Assembly: GCA_965229645.1 (NCBI GenBank)
Contig: OZ245893.1
Span: forward strand, 770,529-834,528
Source: Alphaproteobacteria bacterium
GTDB lineage: Bacteria; Pseudomonadota; Alphaproteobacteria; UBA7985
Length of the DNA stretch: 64,000 nucleotides
Reading direction: 5' to 3'
Both the position numbers and the translations under genes were made by a program. Below the pieces are notes generated by a model. That model ran no database searches. It was not told the DNA's origin and saw only the letters and a list, made by a program, of their open reading frames with translations. This document shows, piece after piece, positions 7,903 through 48,865 of the stretch. Position 1 is the stretch's first letter, and each line of letters begins with the position of its first letter.

Positions 7903-7984
7903 TTAATTATACCAACGCAAAGATACACTGATTCATTGACCAACCTGCGTCCAAGGACCAAACCTGAGGAGTGATGCCCCCACC

Positions 7985-32703: not shown

Positions 32704-33479
32704 GGCGCGTCCCTGATGTCTGCGAGGATGCCAAAGAGCTCCTGCTGCGAACCGATGTCCAGTTTGCGGTAAAGCGAGCGGCGATGGACCTTGACCGTGT
32801 GCATGGAAATCCCGAGGTTCAAGCCGATGGAGCGGCTGGAATGGCCCTGGACGATGTGCGCCGCGACCTCGGCCTCCCGCGCTGTTACGGGTTTGGACAT
32901 GGCTTGGCAACGATCCTGAAAGCGCTGCTCAAGCGGGGTGGAATGGGCCTTGATGTGCCTCGTTGGTTGGTCCAACATGTCGAACAGTTTGGGAACCAGG
33001 ACCGTCGATAGCTGCGTAAAGGATTTAAGGTCGCGCGCGCTAAAGCGGCGCTGCCCGCGCCCGCGGCCTAGGGACAGGTGCAAGACCGCGCGCTGGTTCA
33101 GGGGACTTAGCAAGCCCATATCATCGACCATGAAAGTAGCGCTGAAATAGGAATCGTAGTAGCGGCTGCTTTCAAACCGATCAGGCGCGATGTCGCGCAG
33201 CAAGAAACACTGGCTGCGGTCGATTTTCCAGGAGTGGAGGTAGAACGGGTCCAGCAAAAAGCCAAAATCGACGTAGGACTTATCGAAGGTTTGGCGCAGG
33301 TCGGGATCGGGGATCCATCGGAACAGAATTTCTGGTTTCATGTCCTGTTCAAAGCGCATGAGCAAGACCGACTGGGCCTGGAAACGATCGCGCAAGTACG
33401 GGACCACCAAGGCCTGAAAGTCGGTCAGATGCCGCGCCGCGACCAACTTGCCGAAGAAGTCGTACTCAGTTGTGTTCAT
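32700..33479 (-). CDS. LuxR-family transcriptional regulator (C-terminal HTH, N-terminal ligand-binding-like domain)
   Basis: C-terminal LTAREAEVAAHIVQGHSSRSIGLNLGISMHTVKVHRRSLYRKLD. Stop overlaps the hydrolase start. Confidence 0.7.
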   Translation of the reverse strand: MNTTEYDFFGKLVAARHLTDFQALVVPYLRDRFQAQSVLLMRFEQDMKPEILFRWIPDPDLRQTFDKSYVDFGFLLDPFYLHSWKIDRSQCFLLRDIAPDRFESSRYYDSYFSATFMVDDMGLLSPLNQRAVLHLSLGRGRGQRRFSARDLKSFTQLSTVLVPKLFDMLDQPTRHIKAHSTPLEQRFQDRCQAMSKPVTAREAEVAAHIVQGHSSRSIGLNLGISMHTVKVHRRSLYRKLDIGSQQELFGILADIRDAP

Positions 33480-33515
33480 TGACCGACGCCCACATGATCT
33501 TCCCCCATCGCAGTG

Positions 33516-33552
33516 CCAGATTTTTGATCTGGCTATACCCCTTTAGGGGTAT
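33516..33552. promoter_or_regulatory. Two adjacent palindromic candidate operator sites in the LuxR / ABC-transporter divergent promoter region
   Basis: CCAGAT-ttttg-ATCTGG (33516-33532) and the near-perfect ATACCCCT-tt-AGGGGTAT (33535-33552). Confidence 0.4.
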
Positions 33553-33646
33553 TGGTTTTTTAATTGAACCCTCTAAGCCCTGAGCGAGGAGCGAAACCTA
33601 TGGAGCAGAGCCAAGACGCCTTGGGCGTTTCTGAACATCGAGTCCC

Positions 33647-34735
33647 ATGACGTCAGGTCAGGCAACCGAGCCTGCCGCGAGGTCGAACGCCACTGCGGCG
33701 GTCGGAATCGAGGACCTGCAAAAGGTCTATCCTGGCCCGCCGCCCGTCGAGGCGCTGGTGCGGGCCAACCTAGAGATCCAGGACAACGAATTTTTTACCC
33801 TGCTCGGCCCCTCGGGCTGCGGCAAAACGACGCTGCTGCGCCTGATCGCGGGGTTTGAGACGCCCACCCGCGGCGCGCTGACTTTGTTCGGGGAGCCGAT
33901 TGTGCATCTGCCGCCCGAGGCGCGGCCCGTGAATACGGTGTTCCAGCATTACGCCCTGTTCCCGCACATGAGCGTGCTGGAAAACATCGCCTTTGGCCTG
34001 CGCCGCCTCGGGCGCACGCGCGCGCACGCCGACAAGACGGCCCAAGACATGCTCGACCTAGTGCAACTGCAGGATTTTGGCGCGCGCAAGCCCGGCCAGC
34101 TGTCGGGCGGTCAGCAGCAACGCGTCGCCCTGGCGCGGGCGCTGGCCCCGCACCCCAAGGTGCTGCTGCTCGACGAGCCCCTATCGGCCCTCGACCTCAA
34201 ATTGCGGCAGTCCATGCGCTCAGAACTAAAGCGCCTGCAGCAAGAAACCGGCATCACCTTCGTGTTCGTGACCCACGATCAGGACGAGGCCCTGGCCATG
34301 TCCGACCGCATCGCCGTCATGTCGGCGGGGGAAATCCAACAAGTCGGCGACCCGAGCCGCGTCTATGAGCATCCCGAAAATCGCTTCGTCGCCGAGTTTA
34401 TCGGGGACGCTAATTTTATAGAGGCTGAGGCCCTGGGCGGGACCGCCTATGCCCTGGCAGGCGGCGCGAAGCTCGAAGGACCCGAGCAAGCCCCTGGTCC
34501 CGTCACGCTGTTTTTCCGCCCCGAGAAGGCCAGCTTTGCCGACCAAGGGTTGGCGGGCGAAGTGCGCGAGATTCTCTACATGGGCGGCAGCACCGACTAT
34601 AGCGTGGCCTTGCAAGCGGGCGAGCGCGTGCGCGTGCGCACCGAAAATCGCGCCGACGGCGCGGCGCGCGCGCAGATCGGCGACCAGGTACAGGTCCGCA
34701 TCGCGCCTGCGGCGGTTCGGGTGCTGGCGCGATGA
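33647..34735 (+). CDS. ABC transporter ATP-binding protein, PotA-like (polyamine/opine type)
   Basis: Walker A GPSGCGKTT, LSGGQQQRV signature, C-terminal TOBE-like domain. Confidence 0.8.
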   Translation: MTSGQATEPAARSNATAAVGIEDLQKVYPGPPPVEALVRANLEIQDNEFFTLLGPSGCGKTTLLRLIAGFETPTRGALTLFGEPIVHLPPEARPVNTVFQHYALFPHMSVLENIAFGLRRLGRTRAHADKTAQDMLDLVQLQDFGARKPGQLSGGQQQRVALARALAPHPKVLLLDEPLSALDLKLRQSMRSELKRLQQETGITFVFVTHDQDEALAMSDRIAVMSAGEIQQVGDPSRVYEHPENRFVAEFIGDANFIEAEALGGTAYALAGGAKLEGPEQAPGPVTLFFRPEKASFADQGLAGEVREILYMGGSTDYSVALQAGERVRVRTENRADGAARAQIGDQVQVRIAPAAVRVLAR

Positions 34736-35622
34736 CGGCGCTGGCCCGCGCCGTGCGCGCCTATGCAGGCGTGATCCCCGCCAGCCTCATGATCGGCCTG
34801 TTCATGATCGTCCCGATCCTGATCATCCTGGTCTATTCGTTTTTGGCACCTGGCGACTACGGCGGGGTCAGGGCCGAATTTTCGCTCGCGGCCTACCAAA
34901 AACTGCTCTACCAACGGAACCTGTTCGACCAGCTGGAGTTTAATCCTGCCTATCTGCAGATCACCTTTCGCTCGCTCTGGGTCGCCACCGTCGCCGTGGT
35001 CGGGTGCCTCCTGATCGGGTTTCCCGTCGCCTACTATATCGCGGGGCAACCCGAACAGCGCCGCAATACGCTGCTGCTGCTGATTACGATTCCGTTTTGG
35101 ACGAATCTTCTGATCCGCACCTACTGCTGGATCCTCGTGCTGCGCGATACGGGATTGATCAACAACGCCCTGATCGGCAGCGGCTTGATCGACGAACCCC
35201 TGACCTTGCTCTATACCGAAGGGGCGATCGCGCTGGGGCTAATCTATACCTACATCCCGTTCATGGTCTTGCCGATCTATGCGGCCTTGGAGCGGGTGGA
35301 CCTGCGCCTGATCGAGGCCTCGCGCGACCTCTATTGCAGCCGATGGAGCGCGCTGCGCTTTGTGGTGATCCCGCTCGCCATGCCAGGCCTGATTGCGGGC
35401 GCGATTCTGGTCTTCATCCCCGCCCTCGGCGCCTTCATCGCGCCCGATATGCTGGGCGGTGGTAAGAATTTGATGCTGGGGTCCTTGGTGCAACTGCAAT
35501 TTTCCAGCGCGCGCAATTGGCCCTTTGGGTCGGCGCTTGCCATGGTGCTGATGGCCGCGGTGCTGCTCTGCCTCCTGGCCTATGCCCGCAATGCCCGACG
35601 CGGCGGGGGCGGACACCCATGA
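34732..35622 (+). CDS. ABC transporter permease, PotB-like
   Basis: About six TM segments and an EAA-like loop. Overlaps its neighbours. Confidence 0.75.
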   Translation: MTALARAVRAYAGVIPASLMIGLFMIVPILIILVYSFLAPGDYGGVRAEFSLAAYQKLLYQRNLFDQLEFNPAYLQITFRSLWVATVAVVGCLLIGFPVAYYIAGQPEQRRNTLLLLITIPFWTNLLIRTYCWILVLRDTGLINNALIGSGLIDEPLTLLYTEGAIALGLIYTYIPFMVLPIYAALERVDLRLIEASRDLYCSRWSALRFVVIPLAMPGLIAGAILVFIPALGAFIAPDMLGGGKNLMLGSLVQLQFSSARNWPFGSALAMVLMAAVLLCLLAYARNARRGGGGHP

Positions 35623-36401
35623 CCCGCGATATGCGCTGGCTGCCTGGGTTCAACTGGATCACCCTCGCCTTCTTCCTGTTTCTCTACCTGCCCCTGATCA
35701 TCTTGGTGGTCTTTTCCTTCAACGACTCGCGCTCGGCAACCGTATGGAGCGGCTTTTCGCTCGACTGGTATGCCAAGGCCTTCGCCAACGACGACATCCA
35801 GCGGGCGACGAAAAACAGCCTGGTGATCGCCCTATGCGCCACCGTGGGTGCCACCCTGATCGCGACCATGGCCGCCCTCGCGCTCGGCCGCAGCCGCCTG
35901 ATCCAGCGCAAAGCCCTATTCTCTGGGGCGCTGATCTTGCCGCTCATGATCCCCGAGATCGTGACGGCGGTGGCGACCTTGACGTTTTTTTCGACCCTTG
36001 GGCTCGCGCTCGGCATCGGCAACATCATCATCGCGCATACGGTGTTTTGCATTCCCTTTGCTTACCTACCGATCCGCGCGCGGCTGGAAGGCATGGACGA
36101 AGGGCTGGAAGTCGCTGCCGCCGATCTTTACGCCAGCAAGTGGCAGACCCTGCGCCGCATTACCCTGCCCTTGCTTGCGCCTGGGATCGTGTCGGGCGCG
36201 ATGCTCGCCTTCATTATTTCCCTTGACGATTTCATCATTACCCTCATGGTGGCCGATGCAGGGTCCACAACGCTGCCGATCTATATCTACAGCCTTGTGC
36301 GCATCGGCATTACACCCGAGGTTAACGCCATCTCGACCGTTCTTTTGGGGGTTTCGATCCTCATTGTCACCGTGTCCTACCTGATTGGAAACAAGAAGTG
36401 A
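35619..36401 (+). CDS. ABC transporter permease, PotC-like
   Basis: Start MTRDMRWL (ATGA overlap with the previous gene). About six TM segments. Confidence 0.75.
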   Translation: MTRDMRWLPGFNWITLAFFLFLYLPLIILVVFSFNDSRSATVWSGFSLDWYAKAFANDDIQRATKNSLVIALCATVGATLIATMAALALGRSRLIQRKALFSGALILPLMIPEIVTAVATLTFFSTLGLALGIGNIIIAHTVFCIPFAYLPIRARLEGMDEGLEVAAADLYASKWQTLRRITLPLLAPGIVSGAMLAFIISLDDFIITLMVADAGSTTLPIYIYSLVRIGITPEVNAISTVLLGVSILIVTVSYLIGNKK

Positions 36402-36433
36402 GGGCACAATCCCAAACCTTAAAGGAGGTATCC

Positions 36434-37456
36434 ATGAAAAACCTATCCATTTCCTTATTGGCCCTATCCTGTGCCAGCGGGGTCGCCGCCGCAGAGGGCG
36501 ACCTGTTCCTTTACAACTGGACCGACTATACGGCACCCGATTTGATCGAGAAGTTTGAGGCCGAAACGGGCATTTCCGTGACGCTCGACACCTACGATTC
36601 CAACGAGACCTTGCTGGCCAAATTGCAAGCGGGCGCGACGGGCTACGACATCGTGGTACCATCGCACAATTTCGTGGAAATCATGGTCGGCGAAGGACTG
36701 CTGCAGCCGATCAACGCCGCTGACCTCGCGGGCTACGACAATCTGAACGCGGACTTCACCAGCCCGTCGTGGGACGAGAACAATGCCTACACCGTTCCCT
36801 GGCAGTGGGGCACCACTTCCTTCACCGTCAATACGGACGTGTTTGGCGGCGATATCAATACCTACGAGGTGCTGTTCCAACCGCCTGAAGAACTGCAAGG
36901 CAAGATCGGCATGTTCAAGTCGCCTGACGAGGTCATATCGATGGCGCTGATTTCGCTCGGTCTGCCGTTGTGCAACGAAAACCCTGAGGACATGCAGCAG
37001 GTGCTGGAGCTGCTCGAAAGCCAAAAGCCCCATGTCAAAACCTACAACTCGGACGGGATTTTGGAGCGGCTGGTGTCGGGCGATACGGCGGTGCATCAGA
37101 ACTGGAACGGCTATTCGATCCGCGCGCGCGATGAGAATGCCGCCATGCAGTACGCCTTCCCCAAGGAAGGGGTAATTGCCTGGGCCGACAATGTTGCGGT
37201 GCCAGTCGGCGCGCCCAACTACGACAACGCGATCAAGTTCATCGAGTTCCTCATGGACCCGCAGAACATCGCCGTGCAGTCCAACTTCGCAGGCTACTCC
37301 AACGGCATCACGGGATCCGAGGCCTATATGGACGAGGCGCTGAAGGCGGCGCACGAGTTGTCTCCGCCCGCAGGCACACCGCTCGTGTTCTCGCAAACTT
37401 GCTCGCCCACTGCGGTTGATTTGCAAAACCGTGTTTGGACGGCTCTGCTTCAGTAG
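36434..37456 (+). CDS. ABC transporter periplasmic substrate-binding protein, PotD/PotF-like
   Basis: Start MKNLSISLLALSCASGVAA, preceded by AAGGAGG. Paralogous to the 9162..10235 product. Confidence 0.75.
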   Translation: MKNLSISLLALSCASGVAAAEGDLFLYNWTDYTAPDLIEKFEAETGISVTLDTYDSNETLLAKLQAGATGYDIVVPSHNFVEIMVGEGLLQPINAADLAGYDNLNADFTSPSWDENNAYTVPWQWGTTSFTVNTDVFGGDINTYEVLFQPPEELQGKIGMFKSPDEVISMALISLGLPLCNENPEDMQQVLELLESQKPHVKTYNSDGILERLVSGDTAVHQNWNGYSIRARDENAAMQYAFPKEGVIAWADNVAVPVGAPNYDNAIKFIEFLMDPQNIAVQSNFAGYSNGITGSEAYMDEALKAAHELSPPAGTPLVFSQTCSPTAVDLQNRVWTALLQ

Positions 37457-37501
37457 CTCCTTAATTTAGGCGGCGGGGCCTGTGCCCCGCCGCTGTACCC
37501 T

Positions 37502-39175
37502 ATGATCTCGCTTGTGATCTTCAATGCCCGCGTCCTAACCATGGCGCGGGACACCCCCGTGGCGCAGGCGGTGGCGATTGCGGGCGACCGTATCGCCGCC
37601 GTCGGCAGCACCGCGGACATGCGGGCGCTCGCGACCCCAGGGACGCGCCAGATCGACGCGGGCGGGCGCACGGTCTTGCCTGGGTTCATCGACAGCCATG
37701 TGCATCTGTTCCAGGGTTCGGCAGAACTGGACTTCCTGCCCGTCGGCGGCCTCAGCAATTTGACCCATGTGGTACCCAAGGTGCAAGCCTATGTCCTTGA
37801 TCGGCCCGACGAGCCGCTGGTGCTCGGCGTCGGCGCGTTCTACGATCTGTTTTTGGGGACCGACGCCGACCCGCGCCACCTCCTGGATCGGATCCTGCCC
37901 GACCGCCCCTTCGCCCTGCTGGCGGCGGATCTCCATACCCTGTGGGCCAATACCCGCGCGCTCGATCGTGCGGGGCTGCTGCACGGGGCGGACATGCCCG
38001 AGGGCTCCACCGTGGTCATGGGCGCCGACGGCTGCGCCACGGGCACCCTGCTCGAAACCGGGGCCTTCGGCCCCGTCTTGGCGCTGTCGCGCACAGGCGG
38101 GCGCGATATGCTCGGCTACGTAACGGGCAAGGACCCCGACCCGCCCGCCACCGCCGCTGAGCGCGCGGCAGACAAGGACATGCTGGTCAAGGGCCTCGGG
38201 CATGTTGCCCAGCACGGCATCACGACGCTGCACAATATGGACGGCAACTTCTACCAGTTGGAATTGCTCAGCGAACTGGAAGCCCAAGGCCGCTTGACGG
38301 CGCGGGTGCAAGTCCCGTTTCACCTCAAGAACTTCGATCCCCTCGACCGCCTGGAGGAGGCCGCCGCCATGCACGCCCAATACCGGGGCGCCAAAGTTTG
38401 GTCGGGCCGAGTCAAGATGTTCATGGACGGGGTCATGGAAAGCCGCACCGCGCTCAAGTCCAAAGCCTATCCCGACGCGCCGACCCGCCAGGGCGAGGCC
38501 CTGTTCGCGCCCGATCACTTCAACGAAGCCTGCCGCCGCGCCGACGCGCTGGGCCTGCAAATCAGCGTCCATGCCGTCGGCGATCTCGCGGTCACGCGCG
38601 TGCTCGACGGCTACGAAGCCGCCCGCACCGCCAACGGCCCGCGCGACGCGCGCCATCGCGTTGAGCACATCGAACTGATCACCGACGCAGATCTGGTACG
38701 GATGCGGCGCTTAGACGTGGTCGCCTCCATGCAGCCGCGCCACGCCGCCTTCGCAGGGTTCTTCGAGCCCCCGCAGCCGAACACGATCTTGTTCGACCAC
38801 GAATGCGCGCGCGCCTACGCCTGGCAAACGATTCGGGAACGGGGCATCACGCTGGCCTTCTCAACCGACTGGCCCGTCGTGCCCGTCCATGTGTTGGCGA
38901 ACATCCAAAGCGCCGTCGCCCCCTTGGACTTGGGGCCTGGATGGCCCGATCAGCGCCAATCGCTCATGGATACCTTGCGCAGCTACACGGCCATGAACGC
39001 CTGGCTCGGCTTTCAGGAAGGCCACACGGGCCAGATTCGGCAGGGCTTGGCGGCGGACCTGGTGGTCTTGGACGGTTCGATTGAGGACACGGCCCCGACG
39101 CAGATCGGCGATCTCGGCGTTGCGTTGACCTTGTGCGATGGTCGGGTGACTTATGATGGGGGTCGGGTGACTTGA
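37502..39175 (+). CDS. Metal-dependent amidohydrolase (Amidohydro_3-like family)
   Basis: GFIDSHVHLF metal-binding start of the barrel. 557 aa. The last ~130 codons are duplicated at 44297-44697. Confidence 0.7.
   Translation: MISLVIFNARVLTMARDTPVAQAVAIAGDRIAAVGSTADMRALATPGTRQIDAGGRTVLPGFIDSHVHLFQGSAELDFLPVGGLSNLTHVVPKVQAYVLDRPDEPLVLGVGAFYDLFLGTDADPRHLLDRILPDRPFALLAADLHTLWANTRALDRAGLLHGADMPEGSTVVMGADGCATGTLLETGAFGPVLALSRTGGRDMLGYVTGKDPDPPATAAERAADKDMLVKGLGHVAQHGITTLHNMDGNFYQLELLSELEAQGRLTARVQVPFHLKNFDPLDRLEEAAAMHAQYRGAKVWSGRVKMFMDGVMESRTALKSKAYPDAPTRQGEALFAPDHFNEACRRADALGLQISVHAVGDLAVTRVLDGYEAARTANGPRDARHRVEHIELITDADLVRMRRLDVVASMQPRHAAFAGFFEPPQPNTILFDHECARAYAWQTIRERGITLAFSTDWPVVPVHVLANIQSAVAPLDLGPGWPDQRQSLMDTLRSYTAMNAWLGFQEGHTGQIRQGLAADLVVLDGSIEDTAPTQIGDLGVALTLCDGRVTYDGGRVT
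38773..39162 (+). repeat. Left copy of a ~390-bp imperfect direct repeat (3' end of the amidohydrolase gene); att-like boundary of the integrase islet
   Basis: About 97% identical to 44297..44687 over the whole length. Identity ends at 39162, followed by a 12-bp local duplication GTCGGGTGACTT (39141-39152 and 39163-39174). Confidence 0.7.
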
Positions 39176-39256
39176 TCTGATATGCGCGGCTGCGTTGATT
39201 TTGACGACGGCGGCTGCTGAAGGTCCAAGCAAGGTTGGGTGAACATTTCATGCTGA

Positions 39257-39469
39257 ATGCTGCGACTGTTCACAGGATGGCGTTTGGCTAGAAGACTGAA
39301 GTCACCCGAAGATACGAGACTCCTTAGATTTCCGCCCTCCGCGCGAGAACTCAACTCTATGGAAAACGTCTGGCCGAATCCACAAGCCAACAACCGCTCG
39401 GCAACCGTTTTCGAACGTTGCGATGACATTCTCCAAAGCGTGCACGTCATGGAGCTTCTCGGCAAATGA
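39257..39469 (+). pseudogene. Remnant of an IS630/Tc1-family transposase C-terminus
   Basis: Translation FPPSARELNSMENVWPNPQANNRSATVFERCDDIL matches the conserved LPPYSP(E/D)LNPIENVW...N...F C-terminal block of IS630 transposases. No catalytic upstream part is present. Confidence 0.5.
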
Positions 39470-39606
39470 CCTGGAGCGCATAGAATCAATAGCCGCGCGT
39501 AGATGAGCAACGGTCGTCTGATTTTTGCACTGGAGTTGCGCACAAGGTGGGTCGCGCATCGACTTCTCGTGCAAGGGAGCGAACACCTACAAAATGGAGT
39601 TCCCCA

Positions 39607-40506
39607 ATGTCAGAATTCACTGAACAAATTACAACCTATCTCACCCATTGTGAAAGATCGCGCAGTCTAAGCCCCCACTCCCTTAGGGCCTATGCGCAAG
39701 ACTTGTTTGATTTTCTCTCCTTCAGAGCTGTGCACGACAAAGAAGATGCAGTAAAACCAGAAACCCTTATCGATTACGTATATCACTTAAGACATGATCG
39801 TAATCTTAAACCAGCTACGGTGCGCAGAAGGCTGACTTGTGTTCGCGCGATGTTGCTTTGGACTTATCAAGACAACTCAGCGCTTTGTTCCAGAATTCGA
39901 GAACAAGACCTTGAACTGCGAGTTCCAAAAACCCTACCCAAGCCCATAGAGCGGCAAGACATACGGCATATTCTGCAAATTGGCGAAACAGTTTTATCCA
40001 AGTCAACCTGGAAACAAACTGCTCTGCTCATACGTCTCATTGTCGCAACAGGACTCAGGATCAGCGAAATTCTCAACATCAAACTCAAAGATGTTAGCAC
40101 CGACGGCAGAACAATCCGCGTGATGGGTAAAGGGAGCCGTGAGCGCACGGTTTACGTGGTCAATATCGATGTTCTCCAAGAGTTTACTGAAATGCTCTGC
40201 GGTAGGCAGAACCACAATCCAAATGATCACGTGTTTCAGAATGCCTGGGGTCGGCCTCTAAGTGCAAGCGCATTTCGAAAACGCCTAAAGGACTTGACAT
40301 CCAGGCCAAATGTGCCGGCGCATCTATCTCCACATAAGCTTCGACACTCCGCGGCAACCCTGCTGATTGAGGAAGGGGTGGATATTCGCTTGATTCAAAG
40401 GTTGCTTGGTCATGCCAGTATCGCGACTACGGAACTCTATACCAAGGTTACCGACACATCTCTCCGCGCAGCGCTTGAGTGTGCGGACACAATTTCAACG
40501 ATTTAG
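39607..40506 (+). CDS. Tyrosine-type site-specific recombinase/integrase (XerC/D-like fold)
   Basis: Start MSEFTEQ. Catalytic residues in GLRISEIL, HKLRHSAAT and LLGHASIATTELYTKV. Intermediate GC. Confidence 0.8.
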   Translation: MSEFTEQITTYLTHCERSRSLSPHSLRAYAQDLFDFLSFRAVHDKEDAVKPETLIDYVYHLRHDRNLKPATVRRRLTCVRAMLLWTYQDNSALCSRIREQDLELRVPKTLPKPIERQDIRHILQIGETVLSKSTWKQTALLIRLIVATGLRISEILNIKLKDVSTDGRTIRVMGKGSRERTVYVVNIDVLQEFTEMLCGRQNHNPNDHVFQNAWGRPLSASAFRKRLKDLTSRPNVPAHLSPHKLRHSAATLLIEEGVDIRLIQRLLGHASIATTELYTKVTDTSLRAALECADTISTI

Positions 40507-40531
40507 AGAGGAGTGGCGATAACAAAGAATT

Positions 40532-41644
40532 ATGGGCAGAGATGACCAGCTAATAGTGATTTCAAAACACTATGACAATTTCAAAAATTACGCCCTGGCT
40601 AGTGACGCCTACAAGTATATCGCTTTTTCTGGAAGTCCTATTCTAACAGAAAAAATTTGGGTTAGGGGAGCTGAAACGGGCAGAAGCAGTAAACAATTTA
40701 TGTCTTCATTGACGATAGGAGACATCGGCATTTACGATAAAGGCAGATTCCAGATATTCTTTAACCAACCGTCGATGTTATCTCAGCAATGGAGTTACTT
40801 GCCGAATGTTACTGTTCTAGCGCCCAACTTACACTCATATCAGCAAGCCGCAGACAAATTTAACTTCTACAGCTGGATAGTCAAGTATGGAAATTCAGCG
40901 ATTAAAGAAGTAATGCTAAATCAAATTTCACAATTTAACATCCATTTCAGAGTAGGTAGACCAAAGCCAAATGACAGAAAAATAAGCTCATCTCAAAAGG
41001 GAGAAGGGGGAAGTTCCTATCAATCAAGTGCTCCTAAAGACTGTGATAGTGTATATAGAACATCAAGTTTCTGCAACTACGAGGTTGGTCTAATAATGCA
41101 ATCAGTAGCATATCAAGATGGATGTATTCATGGACCTGTAGGTAGAGTTTGGAGTGGACATGAAGAAAACCCCTACAGGAATAGCTGCATATATTATGAC
41201 CCGAATGTAGAGAATATGATTGATTTAGATAGAATGTATCAGCTTCAAACCGATGTATTCTGCCTCTTAAGAGAAATGAAGTTCACTGGCGCATTCAGCA
41301 CTGATTGGCTTTATACAACAAACGGAGGAAAATTCTATTTTCTCGAAGTCAATCCAAGATTTTCAAGCGACGTGTGCTTGTTTGATCAAAGCTACAAAAA
41401 CAATGGAATTCAAAATCAAATTGCGGTTAATCATCAAATGTCGACATCTGAGAGTTTCCTAGGGAGGCGTATTGAGATAGTGAGTTTTTGTGAGTTTGGT
41501 GGCAGTGAAGAGTTTCGAGCATACTTTCCGCTGGAGAGGACACATGAAAACCATAATTTTGCACTTAATATGTCTCGGAGAGTTCCAGAGTACCTCCTGG
41601 ATTTTCATACAAACCATATGCTTCTCCATTTATCTGAAACTTGA
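40532..41644 (+). CDS. ATP-grasp-like protein, low GC (function unknown)
   Basis: 370 aa. GKFYFLEVNPRFSSD resembles the ATP-grasp E-x-N motif region. Strongly AT-rich. Starts 26 bp after the integrase stop. Confidence 0.45.
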   Translation: MGRDDQLIVISKHYDNFKNYALASDAYKYIAFSGSPILTEKIWVRGAETGRSSKQFMSSLTIGDIGIYDKGRFQIFFNQPSMLSQQWSYLPNVTVLAPNLHSYQQAADKFNFYSWIVKYGNSAIKEVMLNQISQFNIHFRVGRPKPNDRKISSSQKGEGGSSYQSSAPKDCDSVYRTSSFCNYEVGLIMQSVAYQDGCIHGPVGRVWSGHEENPYRNSCIYYDPNVENMIDLDRMYQLQTDVFCLLREMKFTGAFSTDWLYTTNGGKFYFLEVNPRFSSDVCLFDQSYKNNGIQNQIAVNHQMSTSESFLGRRIEIVSFCEFGGSEEFRAYFPLERTHENHNFALNMSRRVPEYLLDFHTNHMLLHLSET

Positions 41645-42998
41645 TTTGTGAAGTTTCTATCAATTTCATCTCTCTGTTTCTCAAATTATGTATTTCTATC
41701 TGCAGTTGAAGTTCTTCAGCCTGATCTTTCAATTTCTCTAACGTTGAATAGTTAAGTGAATCAACAACTTCTGTTGTCATTTCGCTTAGCTGATCAAGGA
41801 GTTCATTAATGTCTAAGTGAATTGTCGACGCTCCTAACACAGAAGAGGCAACCCAAGCCCAGCGAAGTGCATATGCCAACTTCATGGCTCTTCTGAAGAC
41901 TATGCTTCCTTCATATATTTCAGAACTTTGAATCGATTGATATTTTATACAGCTATCAATTGCACTAATTATTTGTGCACACTTTTTCCAGTCTTCAGGG
42001 GAGGCTAAATTGGCGGAGCCAAACCGTACGTGTAAAATGACCTCTCCCCAATACAGTGCTTCCAATTCAGCGCCTGCACGTTTTGCCCTGGAAAAAATCA
42101 CCCCAGGGATTTTTCCCTCTTGATTGCCACTTATGCTTAAGGAGTCTTTTAATAGAGGAGCGAGAATTTGTTTAGCTTTAACATTATCTCGAAGTGACTT
42201 TATAATATTGATTGATTGATCTAATCGATATAGCAGGTCTTGCGATTGCAGCCTATCCAATAAATCCTTAATCCAAGCAAAATTGATTTCGGATTGCTCA
42301 AGTTCAGAAATTCTAATTGACAAGTTTATTTTTTGGAAAAAATCAAGATTTTCGGAGTTTATAAAATTTTGCAAAACTTCGATTAATTTTTCTTTGGAGT
42401 GTATATTTTGGGAGTCATTTGGTTCATTCAAACTGGAAATCTCAAATGATGAAACGCTTCCTAAAAAATCTCTTGGTCCAATTATATAGGACAAATTTTC
42501 CAATGAGATCTCCAGTGACTCGATCACCGTATTGTCCAAAATCAATGCAGTTGCAGATACAGACCTGAGGTCAAGTTTGTTAAATCTGCAACTCCTAAAC
42601 AAACTATCCTCGAGACCGTTTGATGTCATATCTATGTCATTAAACTTACATCTCTCATATATAGTTTCGCGCATATTGCTATGTTTGTAACGAATCCGAC
42701 CCTCACCTAAGAAGTCACAGTCGCTAAATCGTGCTCCAAAAAAGCTGCAGTCTCTTATTTCTGTATCATCAGTAAAAATGAAATCGCAACTCTCAAATAT
42801 TGAGAAAACAAAGTTGCAGTTAACAAATTTACAATCTATAAACTTGCATTTTATGTATGTAGTAAGGCGTGCCTCAATACGCCGGAAATCGATATTCGGG
42901 AAAGTATATCCGACAAATGATTGATAGGATACTGTTCTGCGAAATAGAGATTCCTTCCAAACCAGATCAGTTTCAGGCACGCTCGTTAGATCATTCAT
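41565..42998 (-). CDS. Pentapeptide-repeat protein with a C-terminal coiled-coil-rich domain of unknown function, low GC
   Basis: N-terminal runs of CKFIDCKFVNCNFVFSIFESCDFIFTDD...CSFFGARFSDCDF...CKFNDIDM...CRFNKLDL (A(D/N)LXX-type pentapeptide repeats). 477 aa. Convergent with the ATP-grasp gene; their 3' ends overlap by 80 bp. Confidence 0.6.
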   Translation of the reverse strand: MNDLTSVPETDLVWKESLFRRTVSYQSFVGYTFPNIDFRRIEARLTTYIKCKFIDCKFVNCNFVFSIFESCDFIFTDDTEIRDCSFFGARFSDCDFLGEGRIRYKHSNMRETIYERCKFNDIDMTSNGLEDSLFRSCRFNKLDLRSVSATALILDNTVIESLEISLENLSYIIGPRDFLGSVSSFEISSLNEPNDSQNIHSKEKLIEVLQNFINSENLDFFQKINLSIRISELEQSEINFAWIKDLLDRLQSQDLLYRLDQSINIIKSLRDNVKAKQILAPLLKDSLSISGNQEGKIPGVIFSRAKRAGAELEALYWGEVILHVRFGSANLASPEDWKKCAQIISAIDSCIKYQSIQSSEIYEGSIVFRRAMKLAYALRWAWVASSVLGASTIHLDINELLDQLSEMTTEVVDSLNYSTLEKLKDQAEELQLQIEIHNLRNREMKLIETSQIKFQINGEAYGLYENPGGTLELSETY

Positions 42999-43242
42999 AA
43001 TTCTTTGTTATCGCTAAATTTCGTTTCGGTTAGCATGGCTGGGTCGACTTTGCAACCTACGAGTGATGACTGATTTTCGCAGTGTACCACCTCTGTTCCT
43101 GAAACGCACAATAGCGCTTCACTGGGGAAGGTCAACATATCCAGTTTAACTGCAAATTTAGAGACCGTGTCCAAGTACAGATCATACTCACGGCTAAGGA
43201 GAGGAGTTCGACTTTGCGGGGTGGAGCCTTCCGTTTTTTTGT

Positions 43243-44010
43243 CTGGTGTTCCGTGATGGATGCTGCGACTGCGCGCAGCATGACATCGGAAGGGGTGTCG
43301 GGGTTTCGGAACACCGTCATCCAGCGCGTTGCGAAGCGATGTCGCAGGGTCCAGCGCCCGCCGTTTTCAGCCTGGGTGGAACTTGGTGACACAGAGCAGA
43401 ACAGGCATCGCGCGGTCGGCACCGTCTGCTCTTGTGGCCTGTGTTCCGTGATGGATGCTGCGACTGCGCGCAGCATGACATCGGAAGGGGTGTCGGGGTT
43501 TCCGAACACCGTCGTCCAGCGCTTCGCGACGCGACTTCGCGGATCCAGCGCCTGCCGTTTTCAGCCTGGGCGGAACTTGGTGACATAAAGCAGAACGGGC
43601 AAGGCGCGGTCGGCACAGTCTGCTCTTGTGGTCGGTGTTCCGTGATCGATGCTGCGACTGCGCGCAGCATGACATCGGAAGGGGTGTCGGGGTTTCCGAA
43701 CACCGTCGTCCAGCGCGTCGCGACGCGATGTCGCGGATCCGGCGCCTGCCGTTTTCAGCCTGGGTTTAACTTGGTGACATAGAGCGGAGCAGGCAAGGCG
43801 CGGTCGGCACCGTCTGCTCTTGTGGCCTGTGTTCCGTGATGGATGCTGCGACTGCGCGCAGCATGACCTCGGAAGGGGTGTCGGGTTTCGGAACACCGTT
43901 ATCCAGCGCGTCGCGACGCGACGTCGCAGGATCCAACGCCTGCCGTTTTCAGCTTGGACAGAACGTGGTGACATATAGCCGAACGGGCAAGGCGCGGTCG
44001 GCACCATCCG
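43243..44010. repeat. Tandem array 1 of a ~192-198-bp high-GC nested-palindrome repeat (4 units)
   Basis: Units start at 43243, 43441, 43633 and 43829. Core is GTGTTCCG-TGATGG-ATGCTGCG-actgcg-CGCAGCAT-...-CGGAACAC, followed by a conserved segment with the CGTCGCGACG / GCGACGTCGC palindromes. Confidence 0.85.
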
Positions 44011-44254
44011 TTCGTAGGGTCAGCGTGCTGGGGTGGATGTGGCGGGGCCAAGCAGCGCTTTGTTATTTGACTTCGACCCTGGGATGGAACAGCAGGGCGA
44101 TGGGAATATCCAACGCCGACGGAGCATTCGATGGACCGACGCGAGCAGGCCGCCTGCGTTCGCCAGTACTTTGAGTATTTGACCGCTTCCAATTAAGCTG
44201 CGATCCTCGACTTGTTCGATCCCGATGGGGATGTCGATTCTCCCTATCTGGACA
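44003..44254 (+). repeat. Copy 1 of a ~255-bp segmental duplication (array terminus plus decayed 5' part of a small SnoaL-like ORF); copy 2 at 47343..47605
   Basis: Collinear near-identity with 47343-47605. The small ORF is interrupted here by TAA (..FEYLTASN*) but is intact in copy 2. Confidence 0.7.
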
Positions 44255-44296
44255 GGATGCGCGCTTGCGAATTCTTCGCCAAACTCGCCGAGGCCT

Positions 44297-44697
44297 CGCA
44301 GCCTAACACGATCCTGTTCGACCACGAATGCGCGCGCGCCTACGCCTGGCAAACGATCCGGGAACGGGGCATCACGCTGGCCTTCTCAACGGACTGGCCC
44401 GTCGTGCCCGTCCATGTACTGGCGAACATCCAAAGCGCGGTCGCCCCCTTGGACTTGGGGCCTGGATGGCCCGATCAGCGCCAATCGCTCATGGATACCT
44501 TGCGCAGCTACACGGCCATGAACGCCTGGCTCGGCTTTCAGGAAGCCCACACGGGCCAGATTCGGCAGGGCTTGGCGGCGGACCTGGTGGTCTTGGACGG
44601 TTCGATTGAAGACACGGCCCCGACGCAGATCGGCGATCTCGGCGTTGCGTTGACCTTATGCGATGGTCAGGTGACTTATGATGGGGGAAGGTTTTGA
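44297..44697 (+). pseudogene. Displaced duplicate of the amidohydrolase 3' end (right att-like repeat), fused in frame to a SnoaL-like leader fragment (chimeric ORF 44212..44697)
   Basis: ..QPNTILFDHECARAYAWQTIRERGITLAFSTDWPVVPVHVLANIQSAVAPLDLGPGWPDQRQSL.. is near-identical to residues encoded at 38773-39175. It lacks the N-terminal ~420 aa. Confidence 0.7.
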
Positions 44698-44756
44698 TAC
44701 TCACGAGAACATGAGTTAGGCTACCCACACCCTCGACGTCCGCCCCCTGCCCGACG

Positions 44757-45690
44757 TCATCCAGCGCGGAGCGAAGCGAAGTCGCAGGATCCATCACCCG
44801 CTGTTTCCCCTGAAACGGAACGCGGCCACAAGGAGAGAAGCACGCAACCCAAGAGTCGGTCCCGTCCGCTTTCGCGACAGACGTTCAGTGATGGATGCTG
44901 CGACTGCGCGCAGCATGACATCGGAAGGGGGTGTTGGGGTTTCGGAACACCGTAATCCAGCGCTTCGCGACGCGACGTCGCAGGATCCAGCGCCTGCCGT
45001 TTTGAGCCTGGGCGGAACGTGGTGACACAGAGCAGAACAGGCATCGCGCGGTCGGCACCGTCTGCTCTTGTGGTCGGTGTTCCGTGATGGATGCTGCGAC
45101 TGCGCGCAGCATGACGTCGGAAGGGGTGTCGGGGTTTTGGAACACCGTCATTCAGCGCGTCGCGACGCGACGTTGCAGGGTCCATGGCCTGCTGTTTCGT
45201 CCTAGGCTGAACGTGGTGACATAGAGCGGAACGGGCAAGGAGTGGTCGGTACCGTTTGCTGTTGTGGTCGGTGTTCCGTGATGGATGCTGCGACTGCGCG
45301 CAGCATGACACCAGGAGGGGCGTCGGGGTTTCGGAACACCGTAATCCAGCGCTTCGCGACGCGACGTCGCAGGATCCAGCGCCTGCTGTTTTGAGCCTGG
45401 GCGGAACGTGGTGACAAAGAGCGGAACAGGCAAGGCGCGGTCGGTACCGTCCGTTCTTGTGGCCTGTGTTCCGTGATGGATGCTGCGACTGCGCGCAGCA
45501 TGACATCGGAAGGGGGTGTTGGGACTCTGAACCAGCGTCATCCGGCGCGGAGCGAAGCGAAGTCGCAGGGTCCATCACCTGCTGTTTTCAGCCTGGGCGG
45601 AACTTGGTGACATAAAGCGGAACGGGCAAGGCGCGGTCGGCACTGTCCGCGCTTGTGGCCAGTGGTCCGTGATGGATGCTGCGATTGTTT
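44757..45690. repeat. Tandem array 2 of the ~195-bp nested-palindrome repeat (~5 units, last truncated)
   Basis: Same core GTGATGGATGCTGCGACTGCGCGCAGCATGAC recurring at ~44888, 45084, 45279, 45473 and 45668. Confidence 0.85.
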
Positions 45691-45797
45691 TGTGATGCGG
45701 ACGTTCCTTGCGCCTTTGGGGATTGGAGCCCGCTTGCAAACCGCAGCCGTGGCCCTACACCAGATCCAACAAGAATTTTTCGCAATAGGGTTTGTCC

Positions 45798-46166
45798 CTA
45801 TCGAGCCATCCAGCCTCTATCGGCGGCCAGAGCCCGCAACCGCTTTGCCCTTATTGTGACTTGATTATTGGTTAGGCCCGAAAAATCAATAAGAAAGTGG
45901 GCAGGATTTTCAGGGACAGGATCCGCCTCAAATGGCAAATCAAGACGACGATATTCCTCCTCACTAAGACTCTGAACGCCGATACTATCGAAACCACGCG
46001 CGAGAAAATTAGCCAAACTGCCTTGAGCAGAAACCAAGGCTTCATGATCTACCGACAAGCATGATTGGTTTTTGAGCATAGGTTTGAACGCAAGGCTCAT
46101 AACCCTTCCATCTTTTTCATGATCGGCGCAAATATTCCTCATAAGACACTTCTTCCCAGCATTCAT
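45798..46166 (-). CDS. Hypothetical protein (122 aa), lower GC, second gene of a two-gene cassette
   Basis: ATGA overlap with the upstream ORF at 46163-46166. No recognisable motif. Confidence 0.4.
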   Translation of the reverse strand: MNAGKKCLMRNICADHEKDGRVMSLAFKPMLKNQSCLSVDHEALVSAQGSLANFLARGFDSIGVQSLSEEEYRRLDLPFEADPVPENPAHFLIDFSGLTNNQVTIRAKRLRALAADRGWMAR

Positions 46167-46654
46167 CGTGAGTTAAAGCGTAAAGGTGAACTACGAATTT
46201 TCTCAACTGAGTGCTTGAGCAGTTGAGCATCTGGATTTTTCAATGATGTTTCTGTTTCATGATTTGAAGATAAGTCGATTCCACACATATCAACATCTCC
46301 AGAATCTAAAAATTCAATCGAGAAATCCCATCCATTTTCCTGAAATTCAAAATGAATATCCCCGTCTGGAGTCGAGGCCACACACAAATTTTGTGGCAGA
46401 GATCGCGCTGTGTAGAGGAAGAACAAACTCTTACTAAGAGTTAACTTCCTCGGCGCTTTTCCAACGCCATTGTGCCAACCCTTGGGCAAGTTACCATAGC
46501 TTTGAATTTTTTTTGTTGGCTCACTCAAAGGATGTTGGGGATCTTGTGATCTTAGCTCTTCAACGACCCACGGATCCATTCTGTTTCGTTGCGCTTGTGT
46601 CGCACGCGAAACGCTTTGTGGGTCATATGTGCTTTGATGGACTTGGGCGTTCAT
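46163..46654 (-). CDS. Hypothetical protein (~163 aa), lower GC, first gene of a two-gene cassette
   Basis: Start taken at MNAQVHQ. The ORF-track N-extension runs into the LysR-fragment scar and is rejected. No recognisable motif. Confidence 0.4.
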   Translation of the reverse strand: MNAQVHQSTYDPQSVSRATQAQRNRMDPWVVEELRSQDPQHPLSEPTKKIQSYGNLPKGWHNGVGKAPRKLTLSKSLFFLYTARSLPQNLCVASTPDGDIHFEFQENGWDFSIEFLDSGDVDMCGIDLSSNHETETSLKNPDAQLLKHSVEKIRSSPLRFNSR

Positions 46655-46702
46655 TGAACTTGTATGGCATATGGGAAGCAAGCGGTCAATTCGGGGGACA
46701 AA

Positions 46703-46758
46703 AGACGTACCTCCACGCCCTTCTCCAGCAAACTTGTGCCGACGCAGGGCGCATCTGA
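46703..46758 (+). pseudogene. Fragment duplicating the last ~17 codons of the LysR gene at 50929..50981
   Basis: ACGTACCTCCACGCCCTTCTCCAGCAAACTTGTGCCGA(C/T)GCA(G/A)GG is shared; it encodes ..TYLHALLQQTCADA.. in both places. Confidence 0.6.
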
Positions 46759-46825
46759 TTGGATGGAGCCATTGCCGCGAGCCGCGGACCACGCTCAAGC
46801 GCCCCGCGTTCAGCTTGACATCTTG

Positions 46826-47345
46826 GGGGGTGTCGGGACTCTAAAACACCGTCATCCAGCGCGTCGCGACGCGACGTCGCGGGATTCAGCGTCTGCCGTT
46901 TTCAGCCTGGGTTGAACTTGGTGACGTAGAGCGGAGCAGGCAAGGCACGGTCGGCGCCGTCCGTTCTTGTGGCCTGTGTTCCGTGATGGATGCTGCGACT
47001 GCGCGCAGCATGACATCGGAAGGAACGTCGGGTTTCGGAACACCGTCGTCCAGCGCGTCGCGACGCGACGTCGCAGGGTCCAGCGCCTGCCGTTTTCAGC
47101 CTGGGCGGAACGTGCTGACATAGAGCCGAACGGGCAAGGCATGGTCGGCGCCGTCCGTTCTTGTGGCCTGTGTTCCGTGATGGATGCTGCGACTGCGCGC
47201 AGCATGACGTCGGGAGGGGTGTCGGGGTTTCGGAACACCGTCGTCTGGCGCGTTGCGACGCGACGTCGCAGGGTCCATCGGCTGCTGTTTCGTCCTGGGC
47301 GGAACGTGGTGACATCGAGCGGAACGGGCAACGCACGCTCAGCAC
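46826..47345. repeat. Tandem array 3 of the ~195-bp nested-palindrome repeat (~2.5 units)
   Basis: Cores at ~46981 and 47175. Array ends in the same terminal segment as array 1 and runs into segmental-duplication copy 2. Confidence 0.85.
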
Positions 47346-47471
47346 CATCCGTTCGTAGGGTCAGCGTGCTGGGGTGGATGTGGCGGGGCCAAGCAGCGCT
47401 TTCTTATTTGACTTCGACCCTTGGATGGAACAGCAGAGCGATGGGACTATCCAACGCCGAAGGAGCAGTCG

Positions 47472-47621
47472 ATGAACCAACGCGATCATGCCGTCTGCGT
47501 TCGCCACTACTTTGAGTATTTGACCGCCTCCAACTACGCTACGATCCTCGACTTGTTCGATCCCGATGGGGAGGTCGATTCTCCCTATCTGGGCAGGATG
47601 CGCGCGCTTACCTTGCCATGA
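47472..47621 (+). CDS. Small SnoaL/NTF2-like fragment protein (49 aa), translationally coupled to the FAD monooxygenase
   Basis: MNQRDHAVCVRHYFEYLTASNYATILDLFDPDGEVDSPYLGRMRALTLP. Stop overlaps the monooxygenase ATG (ATGA at 47618-47621). A degenerate copy is at 44108-44175. Confidence 0.35.
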   Translation: MNQRDHAVCVRHYFEYLTASNYATILDLFDPDGEVDSPYLGRMRALTLP

Positions 47622-48865
47622 CCCTCCTCATCTGCGGGGCGGGAATCGCTGGCTTGACCATGGGACTGACGCTGCATCAGATCGAGGTGCCGTTTCAAAT
47701 CTTTGAAACCGTGTCGCGGCCCAAACCCTTAGGCGTTGGGATCAACTTGCAGCCGCCCGCCGTCCGAGAACTCTATGCACTGGGACTGGAGGAAGCTCTG
47801 GATCGGATCGGCGTGCAGACCCGCGACTATGGGTTTTATACGCGCACCGGCCTTGAGATATGGACCGAACCGCGCGGGCGTCGGGCTGGATACAAATGGC
47901 CGCAATATTCCGTGCATCGAGGGCACTTGCAGATGGCGCTGCTCGCCGCCTTGCGTGCGCGTTGTGGCGAAGACTGCCTTAGGTTCGGCGCGAAAGTGCT
48001 GGGTTACGAAAACACCAGGGACGGCGTCAGGTTGCGCTACGAGATGGGTGGGACGACCTGGTGGGCGACGGGTCCTATGGTGGTCGGTGCTGACGGCATT
48101 CATTCGGCGATACGGGCGCGCATGTATCCGAACGAAGGGCCGCCCGTTTGGGGCGGCGCGCTCATGTGGCGGGGGACGTCGCAGGCCAAGCCGTTTTTGA
48201 GTGGCGCATCGATGATCTTAGCGGGCAACGACAGGCAGCGCTTTGTTTCCTATCCCATTTCCAAACCGGACCCCGAAACCGGCCTCTCGACCCTCAACTG
48301 GATTGCGGAAACAACTCCCAACGCCTCGACGCCCATCGATCGAGGGGATTGGAACCGCCGCGTCGAGTCTTCTCGATTTGCGTCGGATTTTGCCGATTGG
48401 GATTTTGGCTGGATCGACGTTCCAGGCTTGATCGGGTCGGCCGCCGAGGTTTTTGAGTACCCCATGGTGGACCGCGAACCGGTCGAGAGCTGGACCGACG
48501 GTAACGTTACGCTGATCGGCGACGCGGCCCATGCGACCTATCCCGTTGGCTCAAGCGGCGCGAGCCAGGCTATTGTCGATGCGCGGATCCTCGGCGCTGA
48601 GATCAGGACCCATGGCCCTGGGGCCGACGCCGCGCACGCCTATGAGGCCCGCGTGCGCCCCATGGCCAACAAAGTAACCCTCGCCAATCGCGGCACCGGA
48701 GGGCCAGATGCGATCATGCAGCTTGCCGAAGACCGATGCGCAGGCGATTTCAGCCGCCTCGACGCCGCCCTGCCCACGGCGGAGCGCGCGGCCCATGCGG
48801 CTGCCTTCAAGAAAATCGCGGGGCTCAGCGTTGAGGAGACAAATCGCACGAATGGCCTATTGTGA
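47618..48865 (+). CDS. FAD-dependent aromatic-ring monooxygenase (salicylate/3-hydroxybenzoate hydroxylase-like)
   Basis: N-terminal LICGAGIAGLTMGL, a GADGIHSAIR block and a DAAH-containing C-terminal motif (GDAAHATYP). Confidence 0.75.
   Translation: MTLLICGAGIAGLTMGLTLHQIEVPFQIFETVSRPKPLGVGINLQPPAVRELYALGLEEALDRIGVQTRDYGFYTRTGLEIWTEPRGRRAGYKWPQYSVHRGHLQMALLAALRARCGEDCLRFGAKVLGYENTRDGVRLRYEMGGTTWWATGPMVVGADGIHSAIRARMYPNEGPPVWGGALMWRGTSQAKPFLSGASMILAGNDRQRFVSYPISKPDPETGLSTLNWIAETTPNASTPIDRGDWNRRVESSRFASDFADWDFGWIDVPGLIGSAAEVFEYPMVDREPVESWTDGNVTLIGDAAHATYPVGSSGASQAIVDARILGAEIRTHGPGADAAHAYEARVRPMANKVTLANRGTGGPDAIMQLAEDRCAGDFSRLDAALPTAERAAHAAAFKKIAGLSVEETNRTNGLL

Follow-up and report, generated by a model that had tools for sequence, protein, structure and literature searches.

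Does a tyrosine integrase gene that stands beside a duplicated gene end mark an integrated island, or can the same picture arise in another way? The question is raised by a locus within a stretch of 64,000 nucleotides from an Alphaproteobacteria bacterium (GTDB lineage UBA7985; NCBI GenBank assembly GCA_965229645.1, contig OZ245893.1, positions 770,529 to 834,528 of the forward strand). This 64-kb stretch is here called the window, and coordinates are positions within it unless a locus label precedes them. An initial annotation, made from the sequence alone, had read part of the window as an integrative element inserted at the 3' end of an amidohydrolase gene and bounded by a direct repeat of about 390 bp. 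The resemblance to an island is evident, but the comparative evidence points to an invertase with sites of its own and to a repeat produced by ordinary duplication and recombination. In the reading that we favour, and that we hold to be reasonably likely, two overlapping but separate things are present: a Xer-like recombinase that would invert a 2.5-kb cassette, and a 390-bp repeat that would stem from a segmental duplication and would not be the substrate of the recombinase. The main object inside the reported interval is probably an invertible, exchangeable two-gene cassette run by that recombinase, a member of a broad family with inversion seen in nature.

The recombinase and its cassette comprise the following features (ORF, open reading frame; aa, amino acids):

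39607-40506, + strand: Xer-like tyrosine recombinase, 299 aa (PF00589, E 7e-41, and PF02899)
40516-40534, + strand: site 1, GCGATAACAAAGAATTATG, which begins 10 nt past the recombinase stop codon and whose terminal ATG is the start codon of ORF 40532-41644
40532-41644, + strand: cassette gene A, ATP-grasp-like, 370 aa (weak CPSase_L_D2, E 0.006, and PRK06849 matches)
41565-42998, - strand: cassette gene B, pentapeptide-repeat protein, 477 aa (Pentapeptide_4, E 1e-8), with its ATG within site 2, convergent with gene A
42996-43014, - strand: site 2, the reverse complement of site 1 (19/19)
43015-43222, no strand: distal outer flank of the cassette, 70-83% identical to the close relative L003 (see below), against ~97% for the chromosome

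A tyrosine integrase next to the left repeat copy had been proposed from the start, and the PF00589 match bears this out. All catalytic residues are conserved (R151, K175, H243, R246, H269 and Y278, invariant in the alignment), and among solved structures XerA and XerD come closest. The protein scores 198 bits with the XerC model (cutoff 335) and 187 bits with the XerD model (cutoff 330); it is a member of the Xer family, but neither XerC nor XerD. An integron-integrase identity was considered and discarded (TIGR02249, 98 bits against a cutoff of 265; PRK15417, 61 bits against a cutoff of 435). P0121 is 100% identical to the recombinase over 299 aa. Exact-protein look-ups gave no match for P0121, for the 319-aa recombinase ORF, for the amidohydrolase or for either cassette protein; PADLOC gave none for the recombinase and the two cassette proteins of the window, and viral contigs contained distant relatives of the recombinase only (≤27% identity).

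Sites 1 and 2 bracket exactly two AT-rich convergent genes (40535-42995). Both ORFs had been recognized in the initial annotation as ATP-grasp-like and pentapeptide-repeat genes, and both were recovered here, the ATP-grasp match being weak; gene B also has a weak HalA-like match (41 bits against a cutoff of 250). The G+C content of the cassette is 37.8%, as compared with 55-60% in the flanks. Positions 40532 and 42998 are the earliest possible start codons of the convergent ORFs, and both fall within the sites. When the relaxed pattern GATAA-N7-TTAT was counted in the 64 kb, sites 1 and 2 were the only matches, against 0.08 expected. The inverted 19-nt dif-like pair, which the initial annotation had overlooked, most likely represents the cognate sites of the recombinase.

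If so, each part of the site would have a role. The outer arm (GCGATAAC here, GTRAYGATAAC in the family) is constant; it faces away from the cassette and is joined to the recombinase gene at its end. The centre (AAAG here), 4 nt within a gap of ~7 nt between ATAA and TTAT, would have to match that of the partner site, and the inner arm, AATTATG, belongs to the cassette and supplies the start codon of the inward-facing gene. If the two sites recombined, the 2.5-kb cassette would be inverted, and the gene placed 25 nt behind the recombinase, probably on the recombinase transcript, would be swapped for the gene that faces the distal flank (43015-43222). The outcome would be a toggle between whole genes, ATP-grasp-like or pentapeptide-repeat, and cassettes would also be replaced wholesale between strains. 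For the window itself, catalysis by the adjacent recombinase, inversion of the cassette and an effect on expression are what we infer from this arrangement and from its relatives.

Loci encoding relatives of the recombinase were fetched for a survey of the family (96 loci and 908 kb at the stage of motif counting). The motif ATAAC-N4-AATTAT was found in 44 of the 96 loci, while only ~1.3 chance matches are expected in 908 kb. It adjoins or overlaps the recombinase stop codon in relatives with 35-45% identity (L009-L012, L014, L015, L019, L020, L025-L028, L030, L031, L034 and L035), is kept after the stop codon in relatives with 59-60% identity (L006-L008), and the recombinase gene abuts a site in more than 15 diverse loci. 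Convergent pairs of sites with identical centres, spaced 1.6-4.6 kb apart, were detected 14 times among the 96 loci; direct pairs sharing a centre were not detected in any of them.

Inversion was observed in two pairs of sibling metagenome contigs. L016 1416-3518 is present in L017 as 7056-4954, inverted and with 100% identity, and the flanks are collinear (L016 110-1433 equals L017 3648-4971, and L016 3501-8039 equals L017 7039-11577). In the second pair, L019 1-3039 equals L020 6163-3125, again inverted and with 100% identity, while the remainder is collinear. Because 18-nt repeats are too short to cause assembly flips, these pairs can be considered natural orientation variants.

The contents of the cassettes follow a common plan. 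In nearly every family cassette, a pair of convergent genes takes up all of the space, each gene starting 13-20 nt into its site. Recurrent pairs are an ATP-grasp/Ddl-like protein with a partner of ~531 aa; an AAA_16 STAND-type NTPase with an ATP-grasp protein or a glycosyltransferase; a membrane protein with a CMAS methyltransferase; and a CDP-alcohol phosphatidyltransferase with a membrane protein. Often, then, a STAND/AAA_16 NTPase or a membrane protein faces a modifying enzyme (ATP-grasp ligase, glycosyltransferase or methyltransferase). Cultured carriers are also found, namely Phaeobacter inhibens P66, P80 and P83, on plasmid d (sites near record positions 8950 and 13860), where the cassette holds an AAA ATPase and a HAD hydrolase facing two glycosyltransferases; in P80, the annotated start of the glycosyltransferase is the ATG of the site. 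In P66 (plasmid pP66_d, NZ_CP010709.1; L102), the site pair, with centre TGAG, spans 1874-6787 and lies just upstream of the recombinase gene.

In several loci the recombinase gene has a cassette on either side (L017 1093-3737 and 4955-7055; L020 3132-7770 and 8933-11577; L024 5093-7777 and 9003-10618). In two-cassette loci each cassette has a different 4-nt centre (e.g., CGAG and TAGG), as if the difference insulated the two putative switches of one locus.

Two further kinds of loci deserve mention. In human-gut metagenome contigs that encode recombinases with 28-33% identity, inverted pairs of the core motif are found with their ATAAC arms pointing inward (L038 9086-14630; L042 3416-7903; L050, L077 and L085), and they enclose a large AAA_16/STAND protein, in one case with Mrr_cat and TPR, convergent with a glycosyltransferase. 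In L006 (7210-7229) and L007 (3194-3213), which come from the same sample series as L003, a paralogous recombinase with 59% identity is accompanied by a lone, more palindromic site, TTGATAACAGGAAATTATCG, with no partner site within the fetched DNA. From 39 bp upstream of the recombinase start codon, the DNA is variable (with a PIN toxin or an IS3 element), and these loci could represent an unoccupied or platform state.

A view of the same locus in a close relative is offered by L003, an ENA contig that encodes P0001 (the amidohydrolase, 97% at the protein level) and P0122 (the recombinase, 95%). L003 is collinear with window positions 33000-40534 at ~97% identity, a segment that includes the recombinase gene as well as the junction at 39162 and the insertion sequence (IS) remnant described below. 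After the recombinase gene, L003 carries an unrelated cargo: a methyltransferase, a 322-aa ORF and a 67-aa ORF. An inverted site pair, GCGATAACTGAGAATTATG, stands at both ends of this cargo, and the ATG at the inner end of each site opens an inward-facing ORF, as in the window. The centre is TGAG in L003 and AAAG in the window; hence, centres vary between genomes yet match within each. The window, L003 and L008 (a locus with a 60%-identical recombinase) part at one and the same base, 28 nt past the recombinase stop codon, where the conserved dif-like motif is found. A conserved three-gene module shared with L008 was considered and ruled out, the cargoes being dissimilar. At the level of sequence, comparison with L003 shows that the cargo beside the recombinase can be exchanged while the recombinase stays put.

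One peculiarity of L003 is an extra G in a G-run of the recombinase gene (L003 10117-10140, window ~40240-40262), which ends the protein at 232 aa, ahead of its catalytic His, Arg and Tyr. It may be either a locked switch or a homopolymer error, and was not used as evidence as the G-run lies in a contig with 4.25x coverage.

That the whole cassette is replaced between strains of 97% identity, the break falling at site 1, admits a second explanation: the inverted sites might serve mainly as a platform for cassette exchange, in the manner of dif modules or of recombinase-mediated cassette exchange, and inversion might be a by-product. The diverse contents of the cassettes across the family, a cassette G+C content far under that of the host and the documented replacement of dif modules are all in line with this possibility. 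However, an exchange between sites with AAAG and TGAG centres would lack spacer identity, and the right boundary of the replaced DNA passes site 2 into the flank with 70-83% identity, which suggests homologous recombination in the flanks. Start codons in both inner arms are, in turn, best explained by a switch of expression context. We thus view exchange as the main function of the sites as rather unlikely, while noting that it is compatible with the inversion of the cassette that we propose.

Generalizing from these loci, we put forward as plausible but tentative that a widespread family exists in which a dedicated Xer-like recombinase flips one or two cassettes through dif-like sites of 18-21 nt, with the 4-nt centre as an address, a start codon in the inner arm, whole unrelated genes that alternate, and cassettes that can be exchanged between strains. 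Such a family would be found in marine Alphaproteobacteria, on plasmids as well as on chromosomes; beside distant relatives in the human-gut contigs, the site motif is a similar one.

Several observations weigh against inversion as proposed. Both orientations were seen in homologous loci only, as the cassette proteins of the window have no record elsewhere and the cassette of L003 is a different one. The sole promoter-like match in the distal flank, a weak leftward one at 43135-43108, is not kept in L003. The plasmids of P. inhibens P66, P80 and P83 show no difference in orientation (one orientation in 3/3). Lastly, some relatives with 41-42% identity lack a site and stand beside island-like DNA (Sulfitobacter L097-L101, P0240, and R. 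denitrificans pTB1), and the clade of the recombinase probably holds integrases as well.

If the inverted sites are the substrate of the recombinase, what is the 390-bp repeat? The features that bear on this question at the amidohydrolase gene are:

37502-39175, + strand: amidohydrolase gene, intact, 557 aa (Amidohydro_3 Pfam profile, E 1.5e-78), with last codons (GRVT*) chimeric from 39163 on
38773-39162, + strand: left copy (L) of the 390-bp direct repeat
39140-39152 and 39161-39173, + strand: 13-nt local duplication, GGTCGGGTGACTT, a junction scar where L/R identity stops; the junction is common to L003
39257-39469, + strand: probable C-terminal remnant of an IS630-family transposase
44298-44687, + strand: right copy (R) of the repeat, within ORF 44212-44697, whose terminus is YDGGRF*

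The repeat of about 390 bp at about 97% identity that gave rise to the island interpretation is real. An ungapped comparison with offset 5525 yields sharp borders and 379/390 equal bases (97.2%) between L and R, and identity outside the block is 28% over 65 nt on the left and 26% over 100 nt on the right. ORF 44212-44697 corresponds to the C-terminal third of Amidohydro_3 (profile positions 350-472, E 8e-19). Amidohydrolase homologues in Rhodobacterales, which are 70-75% identical, end in YDxGxL* (e.g., YDAGRL* in P0008); the fragment in R ends in YDGGRF*, while the intact gene ends in YDGGRVT*, a terminus produced by the 13-nt templated duplication. Because YDGGRF* has the length and pattern of the homologues, R does keep a terminus of the ancestral type. 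R is followed downstream by a unique stretch of 62 nt.

The chimeric terminus and the templated duplication confirm the suspicion of a junction scar at 39162, with the sole correction that the duplication is 13 nt long instead of 12. Position 39162/39163 is a true junction, at which the recombinase module was joined to the amidohydrolase gene, and the view that the recombinase and its cargo are foreign AT-rich DNA attached to the 3' end of this gene is supported. An IS630-transposase remnant between the copies had also been reported; the corresponding match is weak, covering 34 positions at the C-terminus of DDE_3 (105-138 of 146) with an E of 0.02, below the cutoff.

Foreign DNA joined to a gene end at a real junction is the part of the integrative-element claim that survives. 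The other part would make the 390-bp copies attL and attR, generated by the adjacent integrase at both ends of an element (~39163-44297) that provides the amidohydrolase gene with a surrogate 3' end. A direct repeat of the 3' end does exist, the recombinase gene starts 445 bp from L, R has the ancestral-type terminus and L the chimeric one, and some members of the clade are found at island borders. On the other hand, the conserved sites of the family lie elsewhere and are inverted around the cargo: when up to 2 mismatches were allowed, no family site was found at the borders of the 390-bp repeat, and those of the window were found at 40516 and 42996 only. Furthermore, site-bearing relatives invert DNA, and no pair of sites in direct orientation was seen among them.

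Close relatives were examined for an empty site. L003 has the junction and the integrase, but no second amidohydrolase fragment equivalent to R; 75%-identical orthologues in L004 and L005 lack the islet, and are too diverged for boundary mapping. Additional arguments come from substitutions in the 390-bp block, where 8 or more derived bases are common to L and R when L003 and the outgroup L004 serve as reference, and private changes amount to 10 in R and 1 in L. Since L and R share derived bases although the structural junction is common to L and L003, gene conversion between L and R is implied. L and R thus behave as substrates of homologous recombination.

A last argument against attL and attR is found at the right end of the supposed element, which is a copy of a nearby chromosomal sequence, D9, whose usual place is 3 kb downstream. 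Together with the inverted sites, D9 and three arrays of a 194-nt repeat had escaped the initial annotation. The features of this region, in map order, are:

39246-39283, + strand: degenerate piece of the 194-nt unit (hairpin part), downstream of L, 71-76% identical to array units
43223-43995, + strand: array 1, 4 units of a 194-nt structured repeat (TRF; nhmmer with a unit profile)
43996-44264, + strand: D9-1, SnoaL-like remnant copy, directly before R; the 25-33 nt that come next are unique and share the reading frame of the amidohydrolase fragment
44755-45687, + strand: array 2, a partial unit, 4 full units and unit positions 1-52
45688-46805, - strand: AT-rich 1.1-kb block with two ORFs (46163-46798 and 45798-46166) that resemble A and B of PDC-M32, a PADLOC candidate defence system
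46806-47336, + strand: array 3, unit positions 52-194 and 2 full units
47337-47605, + strand: D9-2, resident SnoaL-like remnant (SnoaL_2, E 0.009), which abuts an FAD-monooxygenase gene (47618-48865)

D9-1 and D9-2 are ~92% identical. D9-1 contains an internal stop codon and runs in frame into the amidohydrolase fragment, up to 44297; D9-2 is truncated where the FAD-monooxygenase gene begins (stretch 47337-47621). Taken together, an element bounded by attL and attR appears very improbable, and we return to duplication as the source of the repeat.

The sequence of the far end (D9-1) directly precedes the sequence of the near end (R), and for this reason D9-1/R can be interpreted as the join of a tandem segmental duplication or of a re-entered circular intermediate. 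In the scheme that we propose, the 390-bp repeat would be one end of a segmental duplication that ran from the amidohydrolase 3' end to the SnoaL-like remnant (roughly 38773-47605), in an intergenic region rich in 194-nt repeats. The recombinase module would then have joined the end of the L copy, leaving the scar at 39162, and unit-to-unit recombination in the arrays and L-R gene conversion would have followed. For this order of events, duplication first and insertion second, we see the chances as about evenly balanced.

The L003 arrangement can be accommodated in this scheme. Past its cargo, L003 shows one repeat unit, then a unit split by the AT-rich block as in the window, then another unit, followed by D9 and the FAD-monooxygenase gene; it lacks D9-1 in addition to R. 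Most simply, L003 is a deletion derivative, as one unit-to-unit recombination in a window-like arrangement would be enough to produce it.

The duplication scheme has its own difficulties, however. D9-1 has diverged ~8% from D9-2 whereas L and R differ by 2.8%, and D9-1 reaches ~25-33 nt beyond D9-2 before R starts; because of this divergence and this extension, a simple recent tandem duplication needs extra steps, namely later truncation of D9-2 and L-R gene conversion. In addition, as a single recombination between repeat units could yield the L003 arrangement, L003 alone does not disprove an old integration event.

A Campbell-type insertion would overcome some of these difficulties. A circle from a related strain, made of the amidohydrolase 3' end, the IS remnant, the recombinase gene, the cassette, an array and the SnoaL remnant, might have entered by a RecA-dependent crossover in the 390-bp homology and pushed aside the resident 3' end, now R. 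This explanation accounts for the chimeric L, for the ancestral-type terminus of R and the unique 62-nt stretch downstream of it, and for the ~8% divergence of D9-1 and its longer reach before R. Its price is an earlier illegitimate join between SnoaL and amidohydrolase sequences in the donor; gene conversion is needed all the same, as L and R share derived bases specific to the window, and neither a donor-type circle nor an alternative arrangement was found in any collection searched. We consider an event of this kind unlikely. It addresses how the repeat arose and nothing else, and can be combined with a recombinase that inverts its cassette.

The 194-nt arrays stand on both sides of R. The unit comprises a hairpin, ATGCTGCG-N6-CGCAGCAT, and GC-rich palindromes, has a period that is not a multiple of 3, and looks similar to a repetitive extragenic palindrome (REP). 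Rfam gave no match to the arrays at the gathering threshold, and fold z-scores of the unit are only -2.0 and -2.75. Solitary intergenic pieces are also found at 7990-8043 and 59978-60017. The AT-rich block (PADLOC, 88 bits for PDC-M32B and 31 bits for PDC-M32A) splits a unit at position 52, in the loop of the main hairpin, into 1-52 and 52-194, in the window and in L003 alike, an observation which suggests that the hairpin is an insertion target. Outside the window, the unit is present in an Alphaproteobacteria metagenome-assembled genome (MAG; L001 and L002), and fragments are found 5' of the paralogous recombinase in L006. Two intergenic stretches of the window, 1108-1243, which lies near a tRNA gene (1332-1418), and 7908-8065, resemble MAG locus L002 (89.7% and 75%, respectively); apparently, they belong to other dispersed repeat families common to the lineage.

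If the family acts as the metagenome pairs indicate, it would provide a compact switch of whole genes in which the recombination site is also the translation start and a 4-nt centre insulates multiple cassettes. Such a switch would bear on phase variation in marine bacteria, where it is little described, on the carriage and exchange of small low-GC 'conflict' gene pairs, and on the design of orthogonal recombinase sites. The plasmid d carriers among cultured strains of P. inhibens make direct testing possible. No description of this architecture was found in the literature searched, although absence there is no proof of novelty.

Prophages and elements that bring along a surrogate 3' end for a protein gene include e14 and phage 21, in icd of Escherichia coli. 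The locus described here is similar in the duplication of a protein-gene 3' end and in the displacement of the native fragment beyond foreign DNA with a tyrosine recombinase. It differs in that the conserved recombinase sites lie outside the repeat, the far end duplicates the local D9 sequence, and the copies show concerted evolution. Integrons offer another parallel, as a tyrosine recombinase stands beside variable low-GC cassettes in a region with structured repeats. An integron can be discarded: the enzyme falls well short of the IntI cutoffs, the sites around the cassette are inverted instead of direct, and the 194-nt units are away from the positions of the cassette sites.

In Rci/sfx, one arm alone is conserved, a feature that invites comparison with the sites described here. 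Inversion systems run by tyrosine recombinases (the R64 shufflon with Rci, the hsdS 'epigenetic invertons' and the Bacteroides gene shufflons) share with the family a recombinase gene beside inverted repeats, reversible inversion detected as orientation polymorphism, and alternative coding capacity brought to one expression context (PMC9881135, PMC7672463). In contrast with them, the repeats described here are 18-21 nt long and contribute an ATG only, and the alternation would be between whole unrelated genes, not segments or promoters; moreover, one recombinase can serve two cassettes held apart by 4-nt centres. Sites of this kind would not have been reported by a 2023 survey of gene-altering programmed inversions, as it was restricted to repeats of 22 bp or longer of which one or more lay within a coding sequence (PMC9881135).

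The closest likeness in the sites themselves is to the dif modules of Acinetobacter Rep_3 plasmids (pdif, XerC/XerD), where short dif-like sites (ATAA-spacer-TTAT) stand in inverse orientation around small gene modules (PMC13141974, PMC6449649). Both inversion and module replacement have been described in Acinetobacter between inversely oriented Xer sites with identical spacers (PMC13141974); inversion is limited to sites whose spacers are identical, and related replicons differ by replacement of whole modules. Inverse pairs with identical spacers that bracket modules, along with replacement between relatives, have their counterparts here in the window and L003 and in the 14 family pairs. There are differences as well. 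A pdif is a 28-bp site, with an 11-bp XerC arm, a 6-bp spacer and an 11-bp XerD arm, and is acted upon by the host XerC/XerD; here the gap between ATAA and TTAT is 7 nt, not 6, the outer arm alone is strongly conserved, and a dedicated single Xer-like recombinase gene, the presumed source of catalysis, abuts the site, its stop codon falling next to the outer arm or within it. A gene has its start codon in the inner arm, and the loci are both chromosomal and plasmid-borne, in marine Alphaproteobacteria, with a similar motif in gut metagenome contigs. As a whole, the locus would work in the manner of inversion systems and of dif modules, but differs from both in a dedicated recombinase joined to the site, in a very short repeat with nothing but the start codon in it, in centres that hold multiple cassettes apart, and in cassettes that are replaced between strains.

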